A stretch of 57,688 nt of DNA, the filler included, from Deltaproteobacteria bacterium (GTDB lineage: Bacteria > CG2-30-53-67): assembly GCA_013151235.1 (NCBI GenBank). It is 3 parts of 3 records of this genome, joined end to end, with 100 filler letters (N's around TTAATTAATTAA, not from the genome) between each part and the next. Parts side by side here need not be neighbours in the genome. Positions count along the whole stretch, not along the records: positions 1 to 20,374 come from JAADIO010000029.1; 2 more parts are not named here. One strand, 5' to 3'. A program made the translations under genes and the position numbers. Under the pieces are notes generated by a model. It was not told the DNA's origin and made no database searches. It saw only the letters and a program-made list of their open reading frames with translations. Shown in pieces: positions 1-10,399 of this stretch (position 1 is the stretch's first letter; each line of letters begins with the position of its first letter).

Positions 1-120
1 TTCTGGTTGTTTTTGTTTTAGCGGACTGAAATAAACCAGATGGAAGGCTATCATGTCCTTTTTGAATGTGCGAAAAATATTTTACGTTATCACCAATTCC
101 GGATGCGGCTTTAATATGAG

Positions 121-141
121 AAAGCTCCTCCGAGCTTTTTT
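121..141 (+). terminator. Short intrinsic-terminator-like hairpin, possibly bidirectional
   Basis: AAAGCTC-CTCC-GAGCTTTTTT stem-loop followed by a T run; lies downstream of the minus-strand operon end at 250. Confidence 0.4.
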
Positions 142-249
142 GTTTTCGATTTTCAGATGGCTATTTTCGTTTCAAGAAACGAAACCGGGTCGTATCGACC
201 AGAGAAATCCGATTTCAACTGCTGCTTGAAGCGACTTTTTCAGGAACGA

Positions 250-2073
250 CTAATTAGCCAGAATTACACTCTTAATCACAGGCACAGAACGTGTCTCCTG
301 CTCATATTCATAGGCACCAATATCAAACAAGCCGTTTTGGGGTCTTGTGACTCCTTTGAAATCATGTAATACAATTCCGCTTGTATCCATACCGACATCA
401 ATTGCAGGAGATCCTGCAGAAAGATCAAAATTATCCGACAGGACACCGACAAAAGCTGGATTTCTCCCTGTTATATTGTTCAAAAAGCAGGAAGAAATGG
501 TGCTGGCAGTGGTACCTTTAGTGCTGAACCATAAATTATGGTCTCCAGATACATGGGGATATTTGCCGGGATCAATATTAGTGAATGCGTACCCCTGTGT
601 ATCAACAATAATATTGTTTTTTATGGAACAGGTAACATGGCCATAGTTGCTGGTTGTATAAAACCATATACCAGCTTCACCACCCCCACCATAAGAATCA
701 CCGTAGGCATATATAGTATTGTTATATATCCTTATGGTACTTGACATCCCACGATCCCCTATCCTGATAGCAGCTTCTTCTGCATTCGCCTCATCTTTTG
801 GCCCCTTTCCTGAATTGAGCAAAATGTTGTTATAAACATCGAATGAGCCACTCCAACAGATACTCCCATCTGCTGCACGCGATCCAATGTTGATCCCTGG
901 TCCTCGTTGGTTTAGTACATAATTATCATGGATTTTAACGGTACCGCTAAAATTTCCACAAGTTGTTCCATATGTCTCATCATAGTTGTTCAACCCATAC
1001 TTGGATTTATTGTCCTTAAGAACATTCCAACCCAATTCCCACGGACTCACATTCGTAATCGTGTTGCTGCGTATAGAAAGATATACCGTATGTTGGAACT
1101 TGGATGTCTGATCACAACCGAAATCATGTATATAATTCCCCAGGATCCTGGCATCCGACAAATAATCATAAGAAGCACAATTCGTTGAGATTGCACCTTG
1201 CTCGCCAGAAGTACATTTCCCGGGAATATCGGTTATTTCATTACCAACTATCCTGCCAGATGCCGTTGGCCTGATACCTCTCGCTGTTCCAGGATGAAGA
1301 ATAGTTGTGTCTCCTACAGACGGTTCATCATAGTTACCTATTCTTATTACATACTTTGATATGACAATCCCTTTGGCTTTATATGAATCAATTCCCTGAT
1401 TGTCTCCCTGTGCAGTACAACGGCTGTTCGGATAAGCGGCAAAAGCCGTCTGGTTCATCGCACCACTGACCAAATAGTCAATGCGAATGCCGGTAAGGCC
1501 ACTTGAATAGGAGTTTATCTCCTGCACTCCATCAAGCACATATACAATATCCCCCGGCTGTATTTTCGTACTGGCACCATTTGTATATCTCGAGACAGTT
1601 TTCCATGGATGTACCCATGAACCATCGCCAGTGGAGTTATTCCCTGTTTCACTGACATAATATATGGAGCCCGACCGTACGGTAAACGGCAATGTATTCG
1701 ACAGAATACCGTTCACCTTTAACTGAATCTGATATGTACCCTTGGTCAACGTACCGGGTACAGAAAATGCTATTTCTTGCATTTTGCTGTATGTATACAG
1801 ATCAGCAGGACCTCCCGGAAGTCGCCCATCCGCGTTTTTCCAGTAATAAATATGTGCCGGAGCGATACCGCCTATTGTCAAAGTAGATGCAGCCTGACTG
1901 TTCCCAAGGTTACGACCCCAAAGAGTTACAATGGTACCCTGCCCATAACCATCATTCAGCCCACTACTCGGCCCATTTGTCATGTCAGTAAAAAACAAAA
2001 CAGGAGCCGCGGCATAAGCGATAGATGTAAGGCCTAAAAACACTAATACACAAAAACTTATTATTCTTCTCAT
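250..2073 (-). CDS. Secreted right-handed beta-helix (pectin-lyase-like) protein with an N-terminal IPT/TIG-like domain and a C-terminal choice-of-anchor Q-like region
   Basis: Sec signal (MRRIISF...AYA); IPT-like GTIVTLWGRNLG...SNTLPFTV; YYVSETGNNSTGDGS..PWKT beta-helix start; repeated I.GN/I.NN coils; C-terminal LSAGSPAIDVG...DFKGVTRPQ...DIGAYEY; GGAG RBS. Confidence 0.8.
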   Translation of the reverse strand: MRRIISFCVLVFLGLTSIAYAAAPVLFFTDMTNGPSSGLNDGYGQGTIVTLWGRNLGNSQAASTLTIGGIAPAHIYYWKNADGRLPGGPADLYTYSKMQEIAFSVPGTLTKGTYQIQLKVNGILSNTLPFTVRSGSIYYVSETGNNSTGDGSWVHPWKTVSRYTNGASTKIQPGDIVYVLDGVQEINSYSSGLTGIRIDYLVSGAMNQTAFAAYPNSRCTAQGDNQGIDSYKAKGIVISKYVIRIGNYDEPSVGDTTILHPGTARGIRPTASGRIVGNEITDIPGKCTSGEQGAISTNCASYDYLSDARILGNYIHDFGCDQTSKFQHTVYLSIRSNTITNVSPWELGWNVLKDNKSKYGLNNYDETYGTTCGNFSGTVKIHDNYVLNQRGPGINIGSRAADGSICWSGSFDVYNNILLNSGKGPKDEANAEEAAIRIGDRGMSSTIRIYNNTIYAYGDSYGGGGEAGIWFYTTSNYGHVTCSIKNNIIVDTQGYAFTNIDPGKYPHVSGDHNLWFSTKGTTASTISSCFLNNITGRNPAFVGVLSDNFDLSAGSPAIDVGMDTSGIVLHDFKGVTRPQNGLFDIGAYEYEQETRSVPVIKSVILAN

Positions 2074-2139
2074 CTTAAATCTCCACCATATGGATAAAGA
2101 ACAATCACAACGCTTATTGCAGAATTTATTTCTCCCGAA

Positions 2140-2502
2140 TCAGGGTGTGCTGCTTACGACAGTAACATTATGAGGAACCGCAGGAATCGTGGATAGTTTT
2201 TTCTCTTCCGCCGTAGAAGTACGCTCACTCCCATCACTCATCACAGCCGAAATGGTGAAGTAGACCGGGTACTGCGTTATATCCACATTTGTACATGCTA
2301 ATGTCGTAGCTGTCGCATCACCGGTCTCACACGCAAGCGTTTTACCGCTCATGTCCGCGCTGTAAGAATAGTACATCTTGTATCCCTGAAGATTGCTGGT
2401 GTCCGCCATTGACCAAGTAATCGTTACGGTTTTAGATGCACTCCACACCACAGAAGGGAATAGAAACAACAAAACAAAACAAGCAAGGACTGATTTTACC
2501 AC
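2140..2502 (-). CDS. Small secreted fibronectin type III-like protein
   Basis: Likely GTG start at 2502 behind GGAGGA (ORF track starts at 2538); signal peptide; FN3 hallmarks TVTITW, GYKMYY and YFTISAV; C-terminal PAVPHNVTVV. Confidence 0.75.
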   Translation of the reverse strand: MVKSVLACFVLLFLFPSVVWSASKTVTITWSMADTSNLQGYKMYYSYSADMSGKTLACETGDATATTLACTNVDITQYPVYFTISAVMSDGSERTSTAEEKKLSTIPAVPHNVTVVSSTP

Positions 2503-2560
2503 TTGATTTTCCTCCATCCCGCATATTCGTATCTGCATATCACCATAAAACTGTATTTTC

Positions 2561-5143
2561 TCATTGTTTCCTGCATCGGATTCTCACAATTAGAACAAAC
2601 ACCGGAAGCAACAGAAACAGGCCATCCACCCCGTTCCCCGGCCGACCGGACAAGGCGCAACCACCACCGCCTCCACCACTTCCAGCGGAAGCCCCGGAGG
2701 ATCCGGATGAATTTGAGAGGGGCTCTCCGACAAACCCAGGGTCCACGATCACACCGTTCGCCGTCTTATCGGCATCTCCCGTCCCGCCGTCGGTCAGAGT
2801 GAAACTCAGGCGGTTACCCGATACGACGGCACTCAGCTCCGTAAAACCGTTCCCCGTATCATACTTCCAGTATTCCACATCTGCAGGAAAGCTTGCCTGA
2901 CTGTAGATCGTGACCGTAACGCTTCCTCCGACAGCAACGTTTTCTATCTTATATTGAAATCCGCCGTATGAAAAGTCCGCCGGGAGACTTTCCGACAGAT
3001 AAGCGGAAGGACTGCTGATAAATACGGCTTCGGCAATCCGGACAGCCGAAGCGGAGACCTTCAGCGCAATCTTTCCCTTCTTCCCTTCCAATGTCACCAG
3101 CGTAGCGTCCAGACGATCCGGAACCCCATCACCATCAATGTCATTGCTCAATTCCTGGCTGTCCGGAATCCCGTCATTGTCCGAATCGGTATCCAACGCA
3201 TCGATGATCCCGTCTCCATCCGAATCCAGAGGAGAAGATATATTGCCGATCTCCTGACTGTCCGGGATTCCGTCCTGGTCGCTGTCGGTCAGGTTGGGAT
3301 TCAGAGCGATGGATGTCTCTTCAATGTTCGTCAATCCGTCGCCATCCTGATCACCGTTCGGACCGTCCGTATCATTCATATCAACATAGTTGGGGGCGCC
3401 GTCGTTGTCGGAGTCGCCTGTACCCTCTACGGCATCCGGTTTCCCGTCGTTGTCGGAATCAAGATCAAGGGCGTCGATCGTGCCGTCACCGTCAGAATCG
3501 ATGGGAGTCTTCCCTTTGTCAAATTCCGCCTGATCGGAAATCCCGTCTCCGTCGGAATCGGCAAGGTTCGGGTTCAACCCATATGTCACCTCGGTCGAAT
3601 TGCTGATTCCGTCGCCATCCTGATCACCGTTCGGACCGTCCGTATCATTCATATCAACATAGTTGGGGGCGCCGTCGTTGTCAGAGTCGCCTATACCTTC
3701 CACGGCATCCGGTTTTCCGTCGTTGTCGGAGTCGAGATCAAGGACGTCGATCGTGCCGTCACCGTCGGAATCGATAGGACGGACCCCGTTCCCCCATTCA
3801 ACAAAATCCGATATTCCGTCGCCGTCCGAATCGGCAAGGTTCGGATCCAATCCATACTTAAGCTCCTGACTGTTGGAGAGTCCGTCATGATCCGGATCCG
3901 CCTGTGAATCATAAACGGTGATCATCTTGCTGACGGTTGTTTCCCCTCCATTATTATCGGTAACCCGGAGAGAGACCGCAAAACCGCCCGCCGCTGAAAA
4001 GGTGTGCGAAGGATTCGCCGTATAGGCGGAGGAATGATCACCGAAATCCCAGACATAACCGGTGACCTGCCCGTCACTGTCCGATGCGTTCGCCGTAAAT
4101 GCCACAGTCAACGGGGCAACACCGGTCGTTTTGTCCGCGGTCATGGTCACGGAGGGCGGAACATTCGGATGATCGGAGACAACGATCGACTGTGAGGCGG
4201 TCGCGGTGGCCCCCTGGTTATCCGTTATCGTGAGCGTCGCCGTATAGGTGCCGGCCACACGATAGACATGCGTGGGCGCAGAACCTGAACCGCTGCTTCC
4301 GTCGCCAAAATTCCAGGCATAGGAAGCAATCGTTCCGTCCGTATCCGTCCCCAGGCCGTAGAACCGGACGGAGAGAGACACCTGTCCCTGCGTCGGCGAG
4401 GCGCTTACCGAGGCGGTAGGCGGCGAATTGCCCGAAGACGCCGCCTGCTCTACGACAACCTGGACCGTATCCGTACTGCTCGCCTTCCCGTCATTGACGG
4501 TCAGCTTGAAAACCAGCGTCTGACCGGAAAGGGCCGAAGTAGCCGAAAAGAACGGTGTGGCCGCAGTGCTGCCCAACAGGTTCACCGCCCCGCCGGAGAC
4601 TTGTACCCACGAATAAGTCAGGTTATCTCCGTCCGGATCGGAGCTCCCGCTCCCATCCAGATTGACCTGGATACTCCCTCCCGTTAATTGCGATTGTGTG
4701 ACCGTTTGATCTGCTCCTGCCGAAGCCGTAGGGGCGTGATTTACACTCTCGGTGGCAGTCACTTCATTGGAATAGCCGCTCTCATTCCCGCTTGTATCGT
4801 AGGATGTAACAGCAATATGGTATGTAACGCCGGCGGTCAGGCCGCTCAGTGTAAGCTCCGGATTCGCCGGGTCGGAAAGGGATGCAACCGGGACCGAGAT
4901 CGGAGAATTCCCCTGGGAAAGCCCTGTACCGTTGTAGGGAGCGCCGGACCCGTCCGTATCATAATAAATCCTGTACCCGGCAAGATCGCTGCAGGCAGTT
5001 CCATCGGCATTGGTCGTCGTCTGATCCCAGGCAACGGTCACGGAAGCCTCGGCAAACCCTGGTCGGAGAGAAACCACCAGAAAACAAAGGATCAAAAAGA
5101 TCAAGCTTTTACTTCGGATTGTCTCCATTCGTAAAGCTTTCAT
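2561..5143 (-). CDS. Large surface protein: FN3, PKD/K319L-like domains, thrombospondin type-3-like Ca-binding repeats, choice-of-anchor U-like domain and a Gly-rich Cys C-terminal sorting tail (JDVT-CTERM-like)
   Basis: Signal peptide; SVTVAWD..LAGYRIYY..YHIAVTSYD..ES.YSNEV; PKD motifs YAWNFGDG and YVWDFGD; DSDGDG repeats; LTDGGTGDAD..NGVIVDPG; tail GGGGGGC + TM helix + RIRCRKQ. Confidence 0.88.
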   Translation of the reverse strand: MKALRMETIRSKSLIFLILCFLVVSLRPGFAEASVTVAWDQTTTNADGTACSDLAGYRIYYDTDGSGAPYNGTGLSQGNSPISVPVASLSDPANPELTLSGLTAGVTYHIAVTSYDTSGNESGYSNEVTATESVNHAPTASAGADQTVTQSQLTGGSIQVNLDGSGSSDPDGDNLTYSWVQVSGGAVNLLGSTAATPFFSATSALSGQTLVFKLTVNDGKASSTDTVQVVVEQAASSGNSPPTASVSASPTQGQVSLSVRFYGLGTDTDGTIASYAWNFGDGSSGSGSAPTHVYRVAGTYTATLTITDNQGATATASQSIVVSDHPNVPPSVTMTADKTTGVAPLTVAFTANASDSDGQVTGYVWDFGDHSSAYTANPSHTFSAAGGFAVSLRVTDNNGGETTVSKMITVYDSQADPDHDGLSNSQELKYGLDPNLADSDGDGISDFVEWGNGVRPIDSDGDGTIDVLDLDSDNDGKPDAVEGIGDSDNDGAPNYVDMNDTDGPNGDQDGDGISNSTEVTYGLNPNLADSDGDGISDQAEFDKGKTPIDSDGDGTIDALDLDSDNDGKPDAVEGTGDSDNDGAPNYVDMNDTDGPNGDQDGDGLTNIEETSIALNPNLTDSDQDGIPDSQEIGNISSPLDSDGDGIIDALDTDSDNDGIPDSQELSNDIDGDGVPDRLDATLVTLEGKKGKIALKVSASAVRIAEAVFISSPSAYLSESLPADFSYGGFQYKIENVAVGGSVTVTIYSQASFPADVEYWKYDTGNGFTELSAVVSGNRLSFTLTDGGTGDADKTANGVIVDPGFVGEPLSNSSGSSGASAGSGGGGGGCALSGRPGNGVDGLFLLLPVFVLIVRIRCRKQ
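3107..3898 (-). repeat. About three tandem 273-bp (91-aa) intragenic repeats of Asp-rich TSP3-like units
   Basis: 75-nt exact identity between 3335-3409 and 3608-3682 (offset 273); protein unit D.D.DG.SN..E...L.PNL.DSD.DGI.D occurs three times. Confidence 0.9.
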
Positions 5144-5159
5144 AAATCTACCTCACCAC

Positions 5160-5194
5160 AAAAAAAGGCCGCCAGGAAAACTTCCTCTGGCGAC
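5160..5194 (-). terminator. Intrinsic terminator (expression platform) of the proximal riboswitch
   Basis: Minus strand GUCGCCAG-AGGAAGUUUUC-CUGGCGGC followed by U7; its 5' arm is the aptamer P1 3' strand. Confidence 0.85.
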
Positions 5195-5333
5195 CCGGCC
5201 GACATAGAAACAGAAAAGGGGAATCGGGAAATAGGAATTGGAAAAACAAGGGCAACCCCATACCCATCACCGTTTCATTAGTCCCGAGGCTCTGCGTCCC
5301 GCGGTTTCCCGCGGTTTGCTCTGAGCAAAGGAA
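5182..5333 (-). ncRNA. GEMM-I riboswitch, A20 variant (predicted 3',3'-cGAMP sensing), with a long P3 insertion
   Basis: Minus strand UUCCUUUG-CUCAG-A-GCAAA-CCGCGG-GAAA-CCGCGG-GACGCAGAGCCUCGGGACUAA...UAUGUCGGCCGGGUCGC-CAGAGGAA; 8-bp P1, GAAA tetraloop, CUAA/UAUG receptor; base equivalent to Vc2 G20 (5320) is A. Confidence 0.9.
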
Positions 5334-5373
5334 AACTATTTTATATCAGTATGTTACACCTCATTTCCTCCAC

Positions 5374-5409
5374 AAAAAAACCCAGCATACCGAAAAAGGC
5401 ATCCTGGGT
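5374..5409 (-). terminator. Intrinsic terminator of the distal riboswitch
   Basis: Minus strand ACCCAG-G-AUGCC-UUUUUC-GGUAU-G-CUGGG followed by U7. Confidence 0.8.
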
Positions 5410-5443
5410 AAAAGTCCTCGGGCATCCTGCCGCCCACTATTTT

Positions 5444-5534
5444 ACCACTTCGGGAGGTCATGACCGACCTTAATGATAAGGCCTCACAACTCTGCGATCC
5501 CGGCCTTCCGACCGGAACTGCCTTTATCGGTGGT
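5444..5534 (-). ncRNA. Divergent GEMM-I riboswitch, G20 type (predicted c-di-GMP sensing)
   Basis: Minus strand ACCACCG-AUAAA-G-GCA-GUUCCGGUC-GGAA-GGCCGGGAU-CGCA-GAGUUGUGA-GGCCUUA-UCAU-UAAGGUC-GG-UCAUGAC-CUC-CCG-AA-GUGGU; P1/P2(GNRA)/P3 architecture with G20 (5522) and C92 retained. Confidence 0.7.
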
Positions 5535-7451: not shown

Positions 7452-8321
7452 ATGATAAACGCCCTTTCCGTCGACGTGGAAGAATATTTTCAGGTATCCG
7501 CCTTTGACCAGGTGATCGACCGGCGAAGATGGCCAGCACTGGAAAGCCGCCTTGCCAACCCCCTCCACAGGATCCTGGACCTCTTCGATCGCTATAAAAC
7601 AAATGCTACCTTCTTTGTCCTGGGTTGGATCGCAGAGCGTCACCCGGCGCTGATCGGCGAGATCCATGCACGAGGCCACGAAATCGCCTCCCACGGATAT
7701 GAGCACCGGCTGATCTATGAAAGCTCTCCGAATCACTTCGCGGGAGACCTTGAAAGATCCCGGAAGACTCTGGAGGATATCACCGGACATGGTATTCTCG
7801 GATACCGTGCCCCCAGCTATTCCATTACACGCGAAAACATGTGGGCCTTTGATGCCCTGATCGAACAGGGGTTCGTATATGATTCCAGTATCTTTCCGAT
7901 CCATCACGATCGTTACGGCATATCCGGCAGTCCCCGTTTTCCCTATACGATCAGGCGTAAAAACGGCCGGATCCTGGAGTTTCCCCTCTCGACGGCACGC
8001 ATTATGGGCGGCAATATCCCGGTCGCGGGAGGGGGCTACCTCCGTCTCTTCCCTTTCCCACTTATTCGTTGGGGGCTGCGACACATCAACCGCAAGGAAA
8101 AAGAACCTTTCATCCTCTATTTTCATCCATGGGAGATCGACCCGGAACAACCACGGCAGGCGGTCAATGCTGTAACCCGTTTCCGCCACTATCACAACCT
8201 CAACCGGATGGAAGGAAAGATCGAGCATCTCCTGCAGGAATTCACCTTTACTTCCGTCTCCGGTTTACTAAAAGTGCTCTTCTCCCACGACTATACAGAG
8301 ACAACGGGGACCGCGACATGA
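7452..8321 (+). CDS. Polysaccharide deacetylase, PEP-CTERM/XrtA-locus subfamily (DUF3473)
   Basis: NALSVDVEEYFQV, ATFFVLGW, GHEIASHGY.H, GYRAPSYSI, GGGYLR, YFHPWEIDPEQPR. Confidence 0.92.
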   Translation: MINALSVDVEEYFQVSAFDQVIDRRRWPALESRLANPLHRILDLFDRYKTNATFFVLGWIAERHPALIGEIHARGHEIASHGYEHRLIYESSPNHFAGDLERSRKTLEDITGHGILGYRAPSYSITRENMWAFDALIEQGFVYDSSIFPIHHDRYGISGSPRFPYTIRRKNGRILEFPLSTARIMGGNIPVAGGGYLRLFPFPLIRWGLRHINRKEKEPFILYFHPWEIDPEQPRQAVNAVTRFRHYHNLNRMEGKIEHLLQEFTFTSVSGLLKVLFSHDYTETTGTAT

Positions 8322-10399
8322 TGGTAACAGCGCTGTTGATCCTTTGCATGCTGATCACTTCCGTCACGGCTTTGCTGCTGCTCACGCGTGAACGGAAAAG
8401 TATTGCATTGAAAACGCTGGGGCAAACGGCCGGGTTGCATGCATTCATTATCCTCTGGCTGTTCCTCTCCTGGAACGGGTTCCTCCCCTTTCTCACTCTT
8501 TTGCCGCTGCGGATTGTCCTCTCCCTTTTCTCGCTGACGCTCTATACCTCGGTCCTCTTTTCTTTCCATCATGTCCGTTTTGAACGACCGCTCCTTCCCG
8601 GGATTCAACGAATCGCATTACCTGTATCGGCTTTTCTGGCCGCACTCTTTTTTCTCCTCTCCTTCCATCCGATACTCCTGGCCGAAAAGACACTGCTTAA
8701 CGGCCGGATCGCACTCCGTTTCGGGCCGGCAGGAACCCTCTTCGGCATCGCAACCATCCTCTGTCAGTTGATCATTCTCTTTCAGATGGAGCAAACCTTT
8801 CGCTCCGCCTCAACAAATCAACGGATCCGGCTCAAATTTCTCATCCTGGGAATTGCCTGCGGCAGTCTGTATCTCCTTTTTCTGGCCGGCAGGATTCTCC
8901 TGTATCATTCCATCGCAATTGATTATCTGGTCGCCGGCGCCGTCGTCGCTTCGGCCTGCTGGTTGATGATCCTTTTTGCAATGGTTCGACATCGTTTATT
9001 GCAGGCGGATCTCTTTATCTCCCGACAGGTCGTTTTTACTTCCGTTGCGGCCTTCGGAATCGGTCTTTATCTCTTCGTTGCAGGAATGATTGGATTCTTC
9101 ATCCGTTCCCGGCGGAGTCAATGGGACCTGCTGATCACGATTATCTTCGTCGCCCTGACCATTATTTTTTTCGCCATGCTCCTTTACTCCCCCGTCCTGC
9201 AACGACGGATCAAACATTTCATCCACACCCACTTCTACCGTTACCAGTATGACTACCGAGAGGAATGGAAGGAATTCACCCGGAAGATCATTGCCGCCCG
9301 GGACCTTCCCCAACTCCTCGAAGGGGTCATCGAAATGATCTCCGAAACCCTTTGGATCAACCAGCTCTCCCTCTGGCTCTTTAATGAAAAGACGGGGATT
9401 CTGACATTTACCACCAGCCGCAACCTTCCCAGGAAGGCCCAATTCGTCCGCAGGGAATCCCCGCTGGTGGCCTCCCTGCTCCGTACCGGCACCCCCTTTA
9501 CCACACAATCGTCACGAGGAAGGAAGACCGCAGAAGCAATGAAGGATTTCTTCCAGCGATACCAGATCTCGATGATCGTTCCGCTCAAACTGGGCAAACG
9601 GCTGGTCGGGATGATCACATTAGGCCCCACGATGAAAGGAACCGACTATACGGATGAGGACGGGGAGCTCCTGACCATGATCGCGGATCAGGCCGCCGGC
9701 GCCATTATCAGCGCCCAGTTAATCGAGGAGATCGGCCGGACCAAGGAAGAAGAGTCCTTCAACAAGATCTCCTCCTTCCTGGTTCATGATCTGAAAAACC
9801 TGGTCTCTTCCCTGTCGCTGGCCCTGCAGAATGCCAAGCGGAACATTGCCAATCCCGCTTTCCAGATGGACCTCCTCTCAACATTGGTGAATACCATCGA
9901 GAAAATGCAGACCCTCATCGAGAAACTCTCCACACTTCCGAAGGAACTGGTGATCCACAAGGAACCGGTCAACATCAACCGGTTGATTCGGGAAGCCATA
10001 GAGAGTTCCCGTGTAGACAACCTGCGGAATGTGGAACTGCACACGGAACTGAATGAACTCCCCCTGATCCAGGCGGATGGCGAATATGTGAAAAAGGTCC
10101 TGGTCAATCTGATTCTGAACGCCGTCCAGGCACTGCCGAACGGCAGGGGAAGGATCGAGATCTCCTCTTACGACAGCGACGGCTATGTCCGAGCCGAGGT
10201 CCTGGACGATGGAGAAGGAATGTCGGACGAGTTTATCACCCAGGAACTCTTCAAGCCCTATCGCTCGACAAAGAAGAAGGGATTGGGAATCGGTCTTTTC
10301 CAATGCAAGACCATTATGGAAGCCCACGGCGGAAAGATTGAAGTCCACAGCCTGCCGCAACGGGGCTCTCAATTTATCCTGAGTTTTCCCATTGCATAG
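8318..10399 (+). CDS. prsK: PEP-CTERM system sensor histidine kinase PrsK
   Basis: ATG overlaps the upstream stop (ATGA); multi-TM N-terminus; HFYRYQYDYREEW; GAF region; SFLVHDLKN H-box; NPAFQ.D.L.T; GLGIGLFQC. Confidence 0.88.
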   Translation: MMVTALLILCMLITSVTALLLLTRERKSIALKTLGQTAGLHAFIILWLFLSWNGFLPFLTLLPLRIVLSLFSLTLYTSVLFSFHHVRFERPLLPGIQRIALPVSAFLAALFFLLSFHPILLAEKTLLNGRIALRFGPAGTLFGIATILCQLIILFQMEQTFRSASTNQRIRLKFLILGIACGSLYLLFLAGRILLYHSIAIDYLVAGAVVASACWLMILFAMVRHRLLQADLFISRQVVFTSVAAFGIGLYLFVAGMIGFFIRSRRSQWDLLITIIFVALTIIFFAMLLYSPVLQRRIKHFIHTHFYRYQYDYREEWKEFTRKIIAARDLPQLLEGVIEMISETLWINQLSLWLFNEKTGILTFTTSRNLPRKAQFVRRESPLVASLLRTGTPFTTQSSRGRKTAEAMKDFFQRYQISMIVPLKLGKRLVGMITLGPTMKGTDYTDEDGELLTMIADQAAGAIISAQLIEEIGRTKEEESFNKISSFLVHDLKNLVSSLSLALQNAKRNIANPAFQMDLLSTLVNTIEKMQTLIEKLSTLPKELVIHKEPVNINRLIREAIESSRVDNLRNVELHTELNELPLIQADGEYVKKVLVNLILNAVQALPNGRGRIEISSYDSDGYVRAEVLDDGEGMSDEFITQELFKPYRSTKKKGLGIGLFQCKTIMEAHGGKIEVHSLPQRGSQFILSFPIA

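Follow-up and report, generated by a model that had tools for sequence, protein, structure and literature searches.

Results

The three-gene locus

The stretch of DNA analysed here (the window, 57,688 nucleotides, filler included) comes from the assembly GCA_013151235.1 of a Deltaproteobacteria bacterium, and carries on its minus strand three consecutive open reading frames (ORFs), 2561..5143, 2140..2538 and 250..2073, which encode proteins of 860, 132 and 607 amino acids (aa), respectively. In its database form (P0001) the middle protein starts at position 2517 and is 125 aa long. The ORFs are arranged head to tail with intergenic gaps of only 22-43 and 66 bases, and therefore probably form a single operon. 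An earlier note on this DNA had read them as anchor, shaft subunit and tip of a surface filament, in which FN3 domains born without their first strand would be completed by the C-terminal tail of another molecule; the three ORFs lie where that note placed them, and the observation as a whole is confirmed. The features of the three proteins are as follows.

2561..5143, minus strand: gene of the anchored stalk protein, 860 aa, putative acceptor only (ORF; 78 homologues of the N-terminal region)
5051..5143, minus strand: signal peptide of the stalk protein, residues 1-31 (cleavage after G-F-A predicted by the -3/-1 rule)
4718..5050, minus strand: N-terminal FN3 domain without strand A, residues 32-142, proposed acceptor groove (Pfam fn3 and our own FN3 model)
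3893..4717, minus strand: three PKD/K319L-like Ig domains, stalk (PF18911, E 5.8e-40; PF00801, E 9e-29; PF22352, E 6e-23)
3044..3892, minus strand: aspartate-rich bacterial thrombospondin type 3 repeats, stalk (PF18884, TSP3_bac, E 1.7e-10)
2726..2977, minus strand: choice-of-anchor U domain, residues 723-806 (NF041766, E 6.9e-26, 90.9 bits, cut-off 32)
2564..2677, minus strand: C-terminal Gly run, Cys, hydrophobic helix and basic end (sequence; homologues end alike)
2140..2517, minus strand: gene of the small protein, 125 aa, putative acceptor and donor, proposed adaptor (ORF, P0001)
2440..2517, minus strand: signal peptide of the small protein, residues 1-26 (sequence and alignment; cleavage predicted)
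2200..2439, minus strand: six-stranded FN3 core, strands B to G, mature residues 1-80 (AlphaFold2 and Foldseek)
2143..2199, minus strand: C-terminal linker and orphan FN3 A-strand tail, mature residues 81-99, proposed donor strand (A-strand model, alignment)
250..2073, minus strand: gene of a TIG and beta-helix-like secreted protein, 607 aa, putative donor only, proposed docked enzyme (ORF)
2011..2073, minus strand: signal peptide of the 607-aa protein, residues 1-21 (sequence; cleavage predicted)
1681..1944, minus strand: IPT/TIG-like Ig domain, residues 44-131, its first strand included (PF01833, E 0.0027, under the cut-off)
433..1656, minus strand: central region, read from its sequence as a right-handed beta-helix (repeated turns of the Asn-Asn-x-Ile type)
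301..432, minus strand: choice-of-anchor Q domain, residues 548-591 (NF041518, E 7.6e-12, 45.3 bits, cut-off 25)
253..300, minus strand: 16-residue C-terminal tail, proposed donor strand, non-canonical (position as in the tails of homologues)

FN3 domains that start at strand B

Neither of the two FN3 domains of the operon has the seven strands A to G of the fold, strand A being missing at the mature N-terminus in both, as the earlier note had claimed. In the stalk protein, the Pfam fn3 profile matches residues 33-130 with its positions 14-83 of 84 (E 1.2e-4, 22.7 bits, cut-off 25), and our own FN3 model matches residues 33-142 (E 7.9e-44). Because the predicted signal peptide ends at about residue 31 and the fn3 match begins at residue 33, there is no space for strand A. 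The same start is common in relatives of this protein: in 59 of 78, of which 64 could be measured, no more than 16 residues separate the hydrophobic core of the signal peptide from the Trp of strand B, in contrast to two relatives with gaps of 31-33 residues, which have a normal A strand.

In the small protein, the strand-B motif begins within about three residues of the signal peptide. An AlphaFold2 model based on a 98-row alignment (pLDDT, the predicted confidence, 91.9) shows six strands, B to G, within mature residues 2-80, the corresponding single-sequence prediction being unusable (pLDDT 50). A Foldseek search with this model gave the FN3 domains 2ha1 and 2h41 as top matches in the PDB, at a modest E-value of about 2e-3 and a TM score of 0.60 by query; the Pfam fn3 profile has no match in the small protein, and a sequence search of the PDB with it found none either. 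A word-based search for homologues returned only the protein itself, and a full HMMER search recovered 142 relatives at E≤1e-3, 57 of them of at most 170 aa. All 32 small members that were aligned have the strand-B motif directly behind the signal peptide and end in a C-terminal tail of the form x-N/G-(L/F)-x-(V/I). In longer members of the family (200-390 aa) this N-terminal module and the strand recur, and a proline-rich linker leads from there to a cargo domain. Look-alikes of P0001 in the ESM Atlas are clusters of hypothetical proteins of about 118 aa; the few members with taxon records are labelled viral (Uroviricota), so that phage contigs, too, may carry small FN3 proteins of this type.

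An orphan A strand behind strand G

The small protein carries, behind strand G, a homologue of the strand that is absent from its N-terminus. On a canonical A-strand model built from 129 internal FN3 domains its tail scores 13.1 bits, more than any of 1190 internal windows and 119 shuffled tails used as controls. In P0106, a protein of tandem FN3 domains, the positions that form the tail in the small-family model fall on the A strand of the following repeat, 2-4 residues ahead of its strand B, from which it follows that the tail is an A strand by homology. The earlier note had made the same identification, and had placed the strand only about three residues behind strand G; the distance is indeed that between domains in tandem FN3 arrays, the linker being of about five residues and not three.

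Since one chain holds both a groove and a strand, it could be that the small protein is a circularly permuted FN3 domain whose tail completes its own fold in cis, and the moderate pLDDT of the tail (72-74) would be compatible with this. However, mature residues 81-99 have no DSSP strand in the monomer model and are not folded back onto the domain, in keeping with the view of the earlier note that the tail points away from it. In the FN3 topology about five linker residues are too few to span the length of the domain, so that the tail cannot reach its own groove, and the spacing between strand G and tail is what one finds between successive FN3 domains. Moreover, the beta-helix proteins that bear such tails have no FN3 domain to fill. 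On linker length, array spacing and the monomer model we have discarded the circular permutant, which we hold to be highly improbable.

Tails among relatives of the 607-aa protein

The 607-aa protein is probably a polysaccharide-active enzyme. Its choice-of-anchor Q profile (NF041518) passes the cut-off near the C-terminus, its TIG domain is matched in 8 of 18 aligned homologues, and one source labels a homologue as a right-handed beta-helix protein, the sole match in the PDB being a weak one to a parallel beta-helix repeat protein (E 0.03). The closest named relative is from a Desulforhopalus species (59% identity), and 253 homologues were found at E≤1e-5. Dockerin and cohesin profiles match none of the three proteins of the window.

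Among the 119 homologues listed, which are 33-60% identical to the 607-aa protein, 67 have within their last 20 residues a tail of the pattern Pro-x-x-Pro-x-x-h-x-h that no FN3 domain follows; as controls, 5950 internal windows show these patterns at a rate of 4.5%, and 19 of the 119 tails show them when reversed. By the independent A-strand model, 25 of the 119 tails reach at least 6 bits, compared with 6 among 1190 internal windows, 8 among 516 ends of other ORFs and none among 119 shuffled tails. The remaining homologues end at the choice-of-anchor Q domain, or have a dockerin (PF00404), a type IX secretion system (T9SS) domain or a membrane helix in place of the tail. The core motif is present in 63 of 175 non-redundant C-termini, and the stop codon follows it with precision, exactly one residue past the motif in 42 of the 63 and within 0-3 residues in 55. 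The tail is also common to adjacent and otherwise unrelated genes, namely three genes at one locus (L122) and genes at two others (L057 and L065).

A rather improbable explanation of these tails is that they interact with nothing, a six-stranded FN3 domain being stable alone and the tails being either harmless remnants of lost downstream FN3 domains or mere linkers. Some relatives (L078, L079) do have complete FN3 domains behind the beta-helix, each with its A strand, which makes truncation plausible and points to the origin of the tag; in addition, local Pfam matches often miss first strands, and the enzyme tail in the window is degenerate. But stops placed so precisely in diverged proteins are not explained by random truncation of a following FN3 domain, nor would one expect a remnant to be kept in 67 of 119 homologues at such distances, or to recur in unrelated neighbouring genes such as those of L122 and L057.

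Two other kinds of C-terminal ending were seen. Relatives in L061 and L063, and the proteins P0172 and P0185, carry, where others have the FN3-strand tail, an acidic and hydrophobic peptide ending in Phe-Glu, or in Phe-Glu-Asn in P0185, perhaps a first strand orphaned from a domain of a different type. Enzyme relatives in L125, L129 and L132, and one relative of the anchor, end in Leu-Pro-Leu-(Val/Ile)-x-Arg (P0326 is among the carriers). Relatives of the 607-aa protein are rare, being present in 3 of 401 genomes of a phylum-level sample and in 2 of 301 of an order-level sample. At L136 and L137 (genomes G475 and G461, from the order of G002), relatives of 40% identity lie amid phage-like genes, which suggests that this gene family is mobile.

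Co-localisation of tails and FN3 domains without strand A

We examined 80 metagenome loci containing relatives of the enzyme. The small-family model found modules in just two separate neighbouring ORFs, and a broader FN3 model applied to the neighbouring ORFs found a separate gene for an FN3 domain without strand A at a distance of at most 500 bp in L060, L064, L069, L070, L074 (partial), L081 and L124. The putative acceptors in L060, L064, L074 and L081 are small lipoproteins with the lipobox cysteine ahead of the FN3 domain, and in L060, L064 and L081 a Gly/Ser/Thr-rich linker runs straight into strand B, whereas the internal FN3 domains of long proteins in these loci all have a canonical A strand. 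Such a neighbour accompanies 6 of 25 tail-bearing beta-helix genes and none of 47 tail-less ones (Fisher one-sided p=0.0011), a comparison in which seven genes cut by contig ends and one broken gene were set aside, and in which the assignment of tail classes by eye is a weakness. Similar layouts occur elsewhere: L001 has a thrombospondin type 3 protein, a protein with the A-less module and a pectate-lyase-like protein with a tail, and in L040 an A-less FN3 protein precedes a tail-bearing protein that resembles polysaccharide lyases, an arrangement resembled by that of L148. A search for related loci started from a five-row alignment gave two.

Two long proteins (L155 9757-11595, 612 aa; L139 7898-10360, 820 aa) combine an A-less N-terminal FN3 domain with a C-terminal tail resembling an A strand (scoring 9.8 bits by the canonical model and 5.0 bits by that of the family tails), and are large versions of the acceptor-plus-donor layout. 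In genome G244, two near-identical 190-aa proteins (L052 525-1097 and L053 7799-8371) have an A-less FN3 domain at the N-terminus and a dockerin-like C-terminus, and the beta-helix relative of that genome also ends in a dockerin-like repeat, so that two docking systems seem to be mixed there.

The anchor and the surroundings of the operon

The Ig domains of the 860-aa protein are followed by thrombospondin type 3 repeats, probably calcium-binding, and residues 416-673 contain CglD- and MtsD-like stretches. The choice-of-anchor U profile (NF041766) passes its cut-off ahead of the C-terminal end. Judging from its sequence, this end would be a membrane anchor or a sorting signal, of no named type; a hydrophobic helix with basic residues closes many of the related anchors in the same way, and none of the NCBIfam sorting-signal models matches it. 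Exosortase substrates of the PEP-CTERM kind were considered for the anchor and for all three proteins and rejected, for although helix and basic end are there, the PEP motif is absent, and the PEP-CTERM model has no match in the last 70 residues even at E up to 10.

Divergently from the operon, on the plus strand (7452-10399), lie genes of an XrtA/PEP-CTERM system, an XrtA-system polysaccharide deacetylase (398 bits, cut-off 276) and a PrsK histidine kinase (413 bits, cut-off 300). Scans for promoters and terminators at the three-gene locus gave counts no higher than in shuffled sequence. Within positions 1-5500, the G+C content shifts inside the operon, from about 41-44% in the genes of the 607-aa and the small protein to 54-59% in the anchor gene, a step that may stem from the Asp/Gly-rich repeats or from a mosaic origin. 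The small gene ends in a TGA that shares its reading frame with the ATG of the 607-aa gene, 22 codons further downstream (positions 2073-2142), which is probably due to chance since the 607-aa protein has its own signal peptide.

These surroundings bear on the idea that the tails are sorting or secretion signals for an envelope machine, either sortase-like or a secretion system, and that their likeness to A strands reflects descent only. T9SS, PEP-CTERM-like or membrane signals do occupy the tail position in relatives, the precise stop with a polar or charged last residue is as in many C-terminal signals, and most genes with tails have no acceptor nearby. We nevertheless consider a sorting signal unlikely: it would leave unexplained both the many secreted proteins that start exactly at strand B and the association of tails with adjacent genes for A-less FN3 domains, and the sole candidate machine in the neighbourhood is the XrtA system, the PEP-CTERM model of which fails to match these proteins.

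Discussion

A proposed docking chain joined by split FN3 domains

A missing strand, an orphan strand, the conservation of both and their partial co-localisation are features of this operon and its relatives. We propose that the three genes encode an anchor-adaptor-enzyme docking chain, the members of which would be joined by strand complementation of split FN3 domains, and we give this reading a probability of about 50%. Each of the three proteins would be exported by its own signal peptide. Cleavage by signal peptidase right before strand B would leave a six-stranded sandwich with an open edge in place of strand A, both in the distal N-terminal FN3 domain of the anchor and in the FN3 domain of the small protein. 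Into such a groove the C-terminal peptide of a partner, homologous to an FN3 A strand, would enter antiparallel to strand B and complete the fold. Attached to the envelope through its C-terminus, the 860-aa protein would act as acceptor only, the 125-aa protein as acceptor and donor, that is, as an adaptor or extender, and the 607-aa protein as donor only, displayed at the tip of the chain. The order anchor, adaptor, enzyme is the simplest, because the tail of the small protein is canonical, which is the class of the anchor FN3 domain, and the tail of the enzyme is closer to those of the small family. That the partners bind one another, that they follow in this order and that the last of them is active as an enzyme is what we infer.

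Several observations weigh against such a chain. With -1.3 bits on the canonical model, the tail of the 607-aa protein itself cannot be recognised as an A strand, and its 2.6 bits on the small-family tail model are reached by 2.75% of controls; of the free, strand-like tail that the earlier note had described in this protein, the 16 residues behind the choice-of-anchor Q domain are there, and their likeness to a strand is weak. The longer members of the small family hold the strand internally, ahead of the cargo domain, which is less natural for a terminal donor. As to co-occurrence, the association described above stands beside 19 of 25 tail-bearing beta-helix genes that have no acceptor gene nearby. 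In the reverse direction, tails of at least 6 bits were found in 4 of 404 ORFs around 26 acceptor genes, one of them directly adjacent, a rate no higher than the 1.6% among other ORF ends. The full three-gene synteny was seen only at this locus, and partly in L001; the prophage-like DNA around the two relatives of the enzyme from the order-level sample contains no FN3 genes; and there is no evident meeting place for the partners within a diderm envelope. It may be that the partners are scattered over the genomes, by analogy with dockerin-bearing enzymes.

The filament of the earlier note, in which small proteins would polymerise head to tail into an FN3 shaft with the anchor as base and the beta-helix protein as tip, shares with the docking chain the idea of an FN3 fold completed in trans. 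That idea keeps its footing in the conservation of both halves, the placement of the stops and the association of the genes, and the many-subunit shaft is the part left unsupported. An open FN3 domain and a donor tail are both present on the small protein, most members of its family have one shared type of tail, possibly fitting their own class, and N-terminal strand swapping of an engineered FN3 domain is known, going by the title of the entry PDB 4m6a. On the other hand, each locus has just one small gene, with nothing to suggest a major-subunit arrangement, the operon is devoid of an assembly factor, and ordinary anchors stand at the tail position in relatives of the tip protein. The tail of the small protein of the window is of the canonical type and the tails typical of its family are of another, which suggests hetero-pairing and suits a defined chain of anchor, adaptor and enzyme at least equally well. 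Complex prediction with three mature copies of the small protein and an alignment gave a score of 0.30 (mark 0.42) in a run unaccompanied by controls, and speaks neither for nor against binding. Since in relatives of the enzyme the tail gives way to a dockerin, T9SS domain or membrane anchor, docking is indicated rather than fibre building, and the filament appears doubtful to us. It is likewise improbable, in our view, that tags and A-less FN3 acceptors opened by signal peptidase make up a widespread, chaperone-free bacterial system in which dual-ended proteins form enzyme-tipped FN3 fibres of variable length on anchored stalks.

If the docking chain exists, it would be a third route for hanging secreted enzymes on the cell surface, besides covalent sorting signals and cohesin-dockerin pairs, and one that asks of the cargo no more than about ten residues, and of the scaffold a shortened copy of a very common extracellular domain. 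It would explain two features that annotation pipelines ignore, the FN3 domains one strand short behind signal peptides and the proline-rich C-terminal peptides on unrelated secreted proteins. For uncultured members of the Desulfobacterota and of other phyla it would offer a readable code to predict the pairing of enzymes with stalks, and protein engineering would gain a minimal natural peptide-domain pair. Should the fibre reading prove right, a new class of surface filament would be added to a new docking code.

Comparison with known systems

Searches of the full-text literature, with supplementary files and subscription journals outside their scope, returned no description of an FN3 domain split between bacterial proteins, in agreement with the earlier note, which knew of no such architecture. 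In chaperone-usher pili (Pap/Fim, Caf1), strand G is missing from the subunit, an N-terminal extension is donated in its place, and a periplasmic chaperone and an outer-membrane usher are needed. The likeness is that an incomplete Ig-like fold is completed in trans, giving in those pili very stable non-covalent links; the difference is that here it is the N-terminal A strand that is absent and the donor that is C-terminal. With the missing strand and the donor end thus differing, and with no PapD-like chaperone or outer-membrane usher gene among the three proteins or the ten neighbours scanned, a chaperone-usher pilus was rejected.

Closest in logic are the type V pili (Fim/Mfa) of Porphyromonas gingivalis and other Bacteroidota. 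According to one account (PMC13655056), a C-terminal donor strand replaces an N-terminal strand of the acceptor, the groove being opened by proteolytic removal of N-terminal sequence with no need for usher or ATP. The pilins are two-domain transthyretin-like lipoproteins cut by an Arg-specific gingipain, and base and stalk subunits donate, tip subunits being without donor strands. The two share a C-terminal donor that fills an N-terminal strand gap, and they differ in that here a single FN3 domain would be opened by signal peptidase, the anchored base would be acceptor only and the distal enzyme would be the donor, which amounts to the opposite polarity. A type V pilus was rejected, since the lipobox Cys is missing, the signal peptides of all three proteins in the window ending in Ala/Ser-type sites, and since the small protein is one FN3-like domain and not two transthyretin-like ones; some related acceptors elsewhere (L060, L064, L081) are lipoproteins, unlike the three proteins of the window.

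For the Pam pili of the Candidate Phyla Radiation, the reports (PMC13278184; bioRxiv 10.64898/2026.03.03.709456) describe pilins with a truncated Ig-like C-terminal domain and a linker strand, membrane-anchored chaperones, a single-domain tip that is acceptor only, and a membrane-anchored, FN3-containing protein, PamR, which joins by a terminal strand and donates that N-terminal strand. A donor-strand chain that includes a membrane-anchored FN3-containing protein is common to both, and the NCBIfam PamR model gives a weak match on the anchor (E 8.4e-5, 21.6 bits, cut-off 300). In Pam pili, as in chaperone-usher pili, other strands are missing and chaperones are required. In PDB 4m6a, a consensus FN3 scaffold, there is a swap of the N-terminal beta-strand, to judge by the title of the entry, so that strand A can be exchanged between molecules; as titled, this is an artificial and reciprocal swap of complete domains and not a natural split between proteins.

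The nearest functional analogue is the cohesin-dockerin pair of cellulosomes, in which a short C-terminal module likewise docks many kinds of secreted carbohydrate-active enzymes on an anchored scaffold or adaptor. Dockerins fold into calcium-binding modules of about 70 residues, which attach to the face of an intact cohesin domain. In relatives of the 607-aa protein a dockerin (PF00404) sits exactly at the position of the tail, and the chain proposed here may, by analogy, combine the logic of a pilus with the job of a dockerin. The difference lies in the joint itself: in place of a folded module on a complete receptor, a peptide of about ten residues would be built into the fold of the receptor itself.

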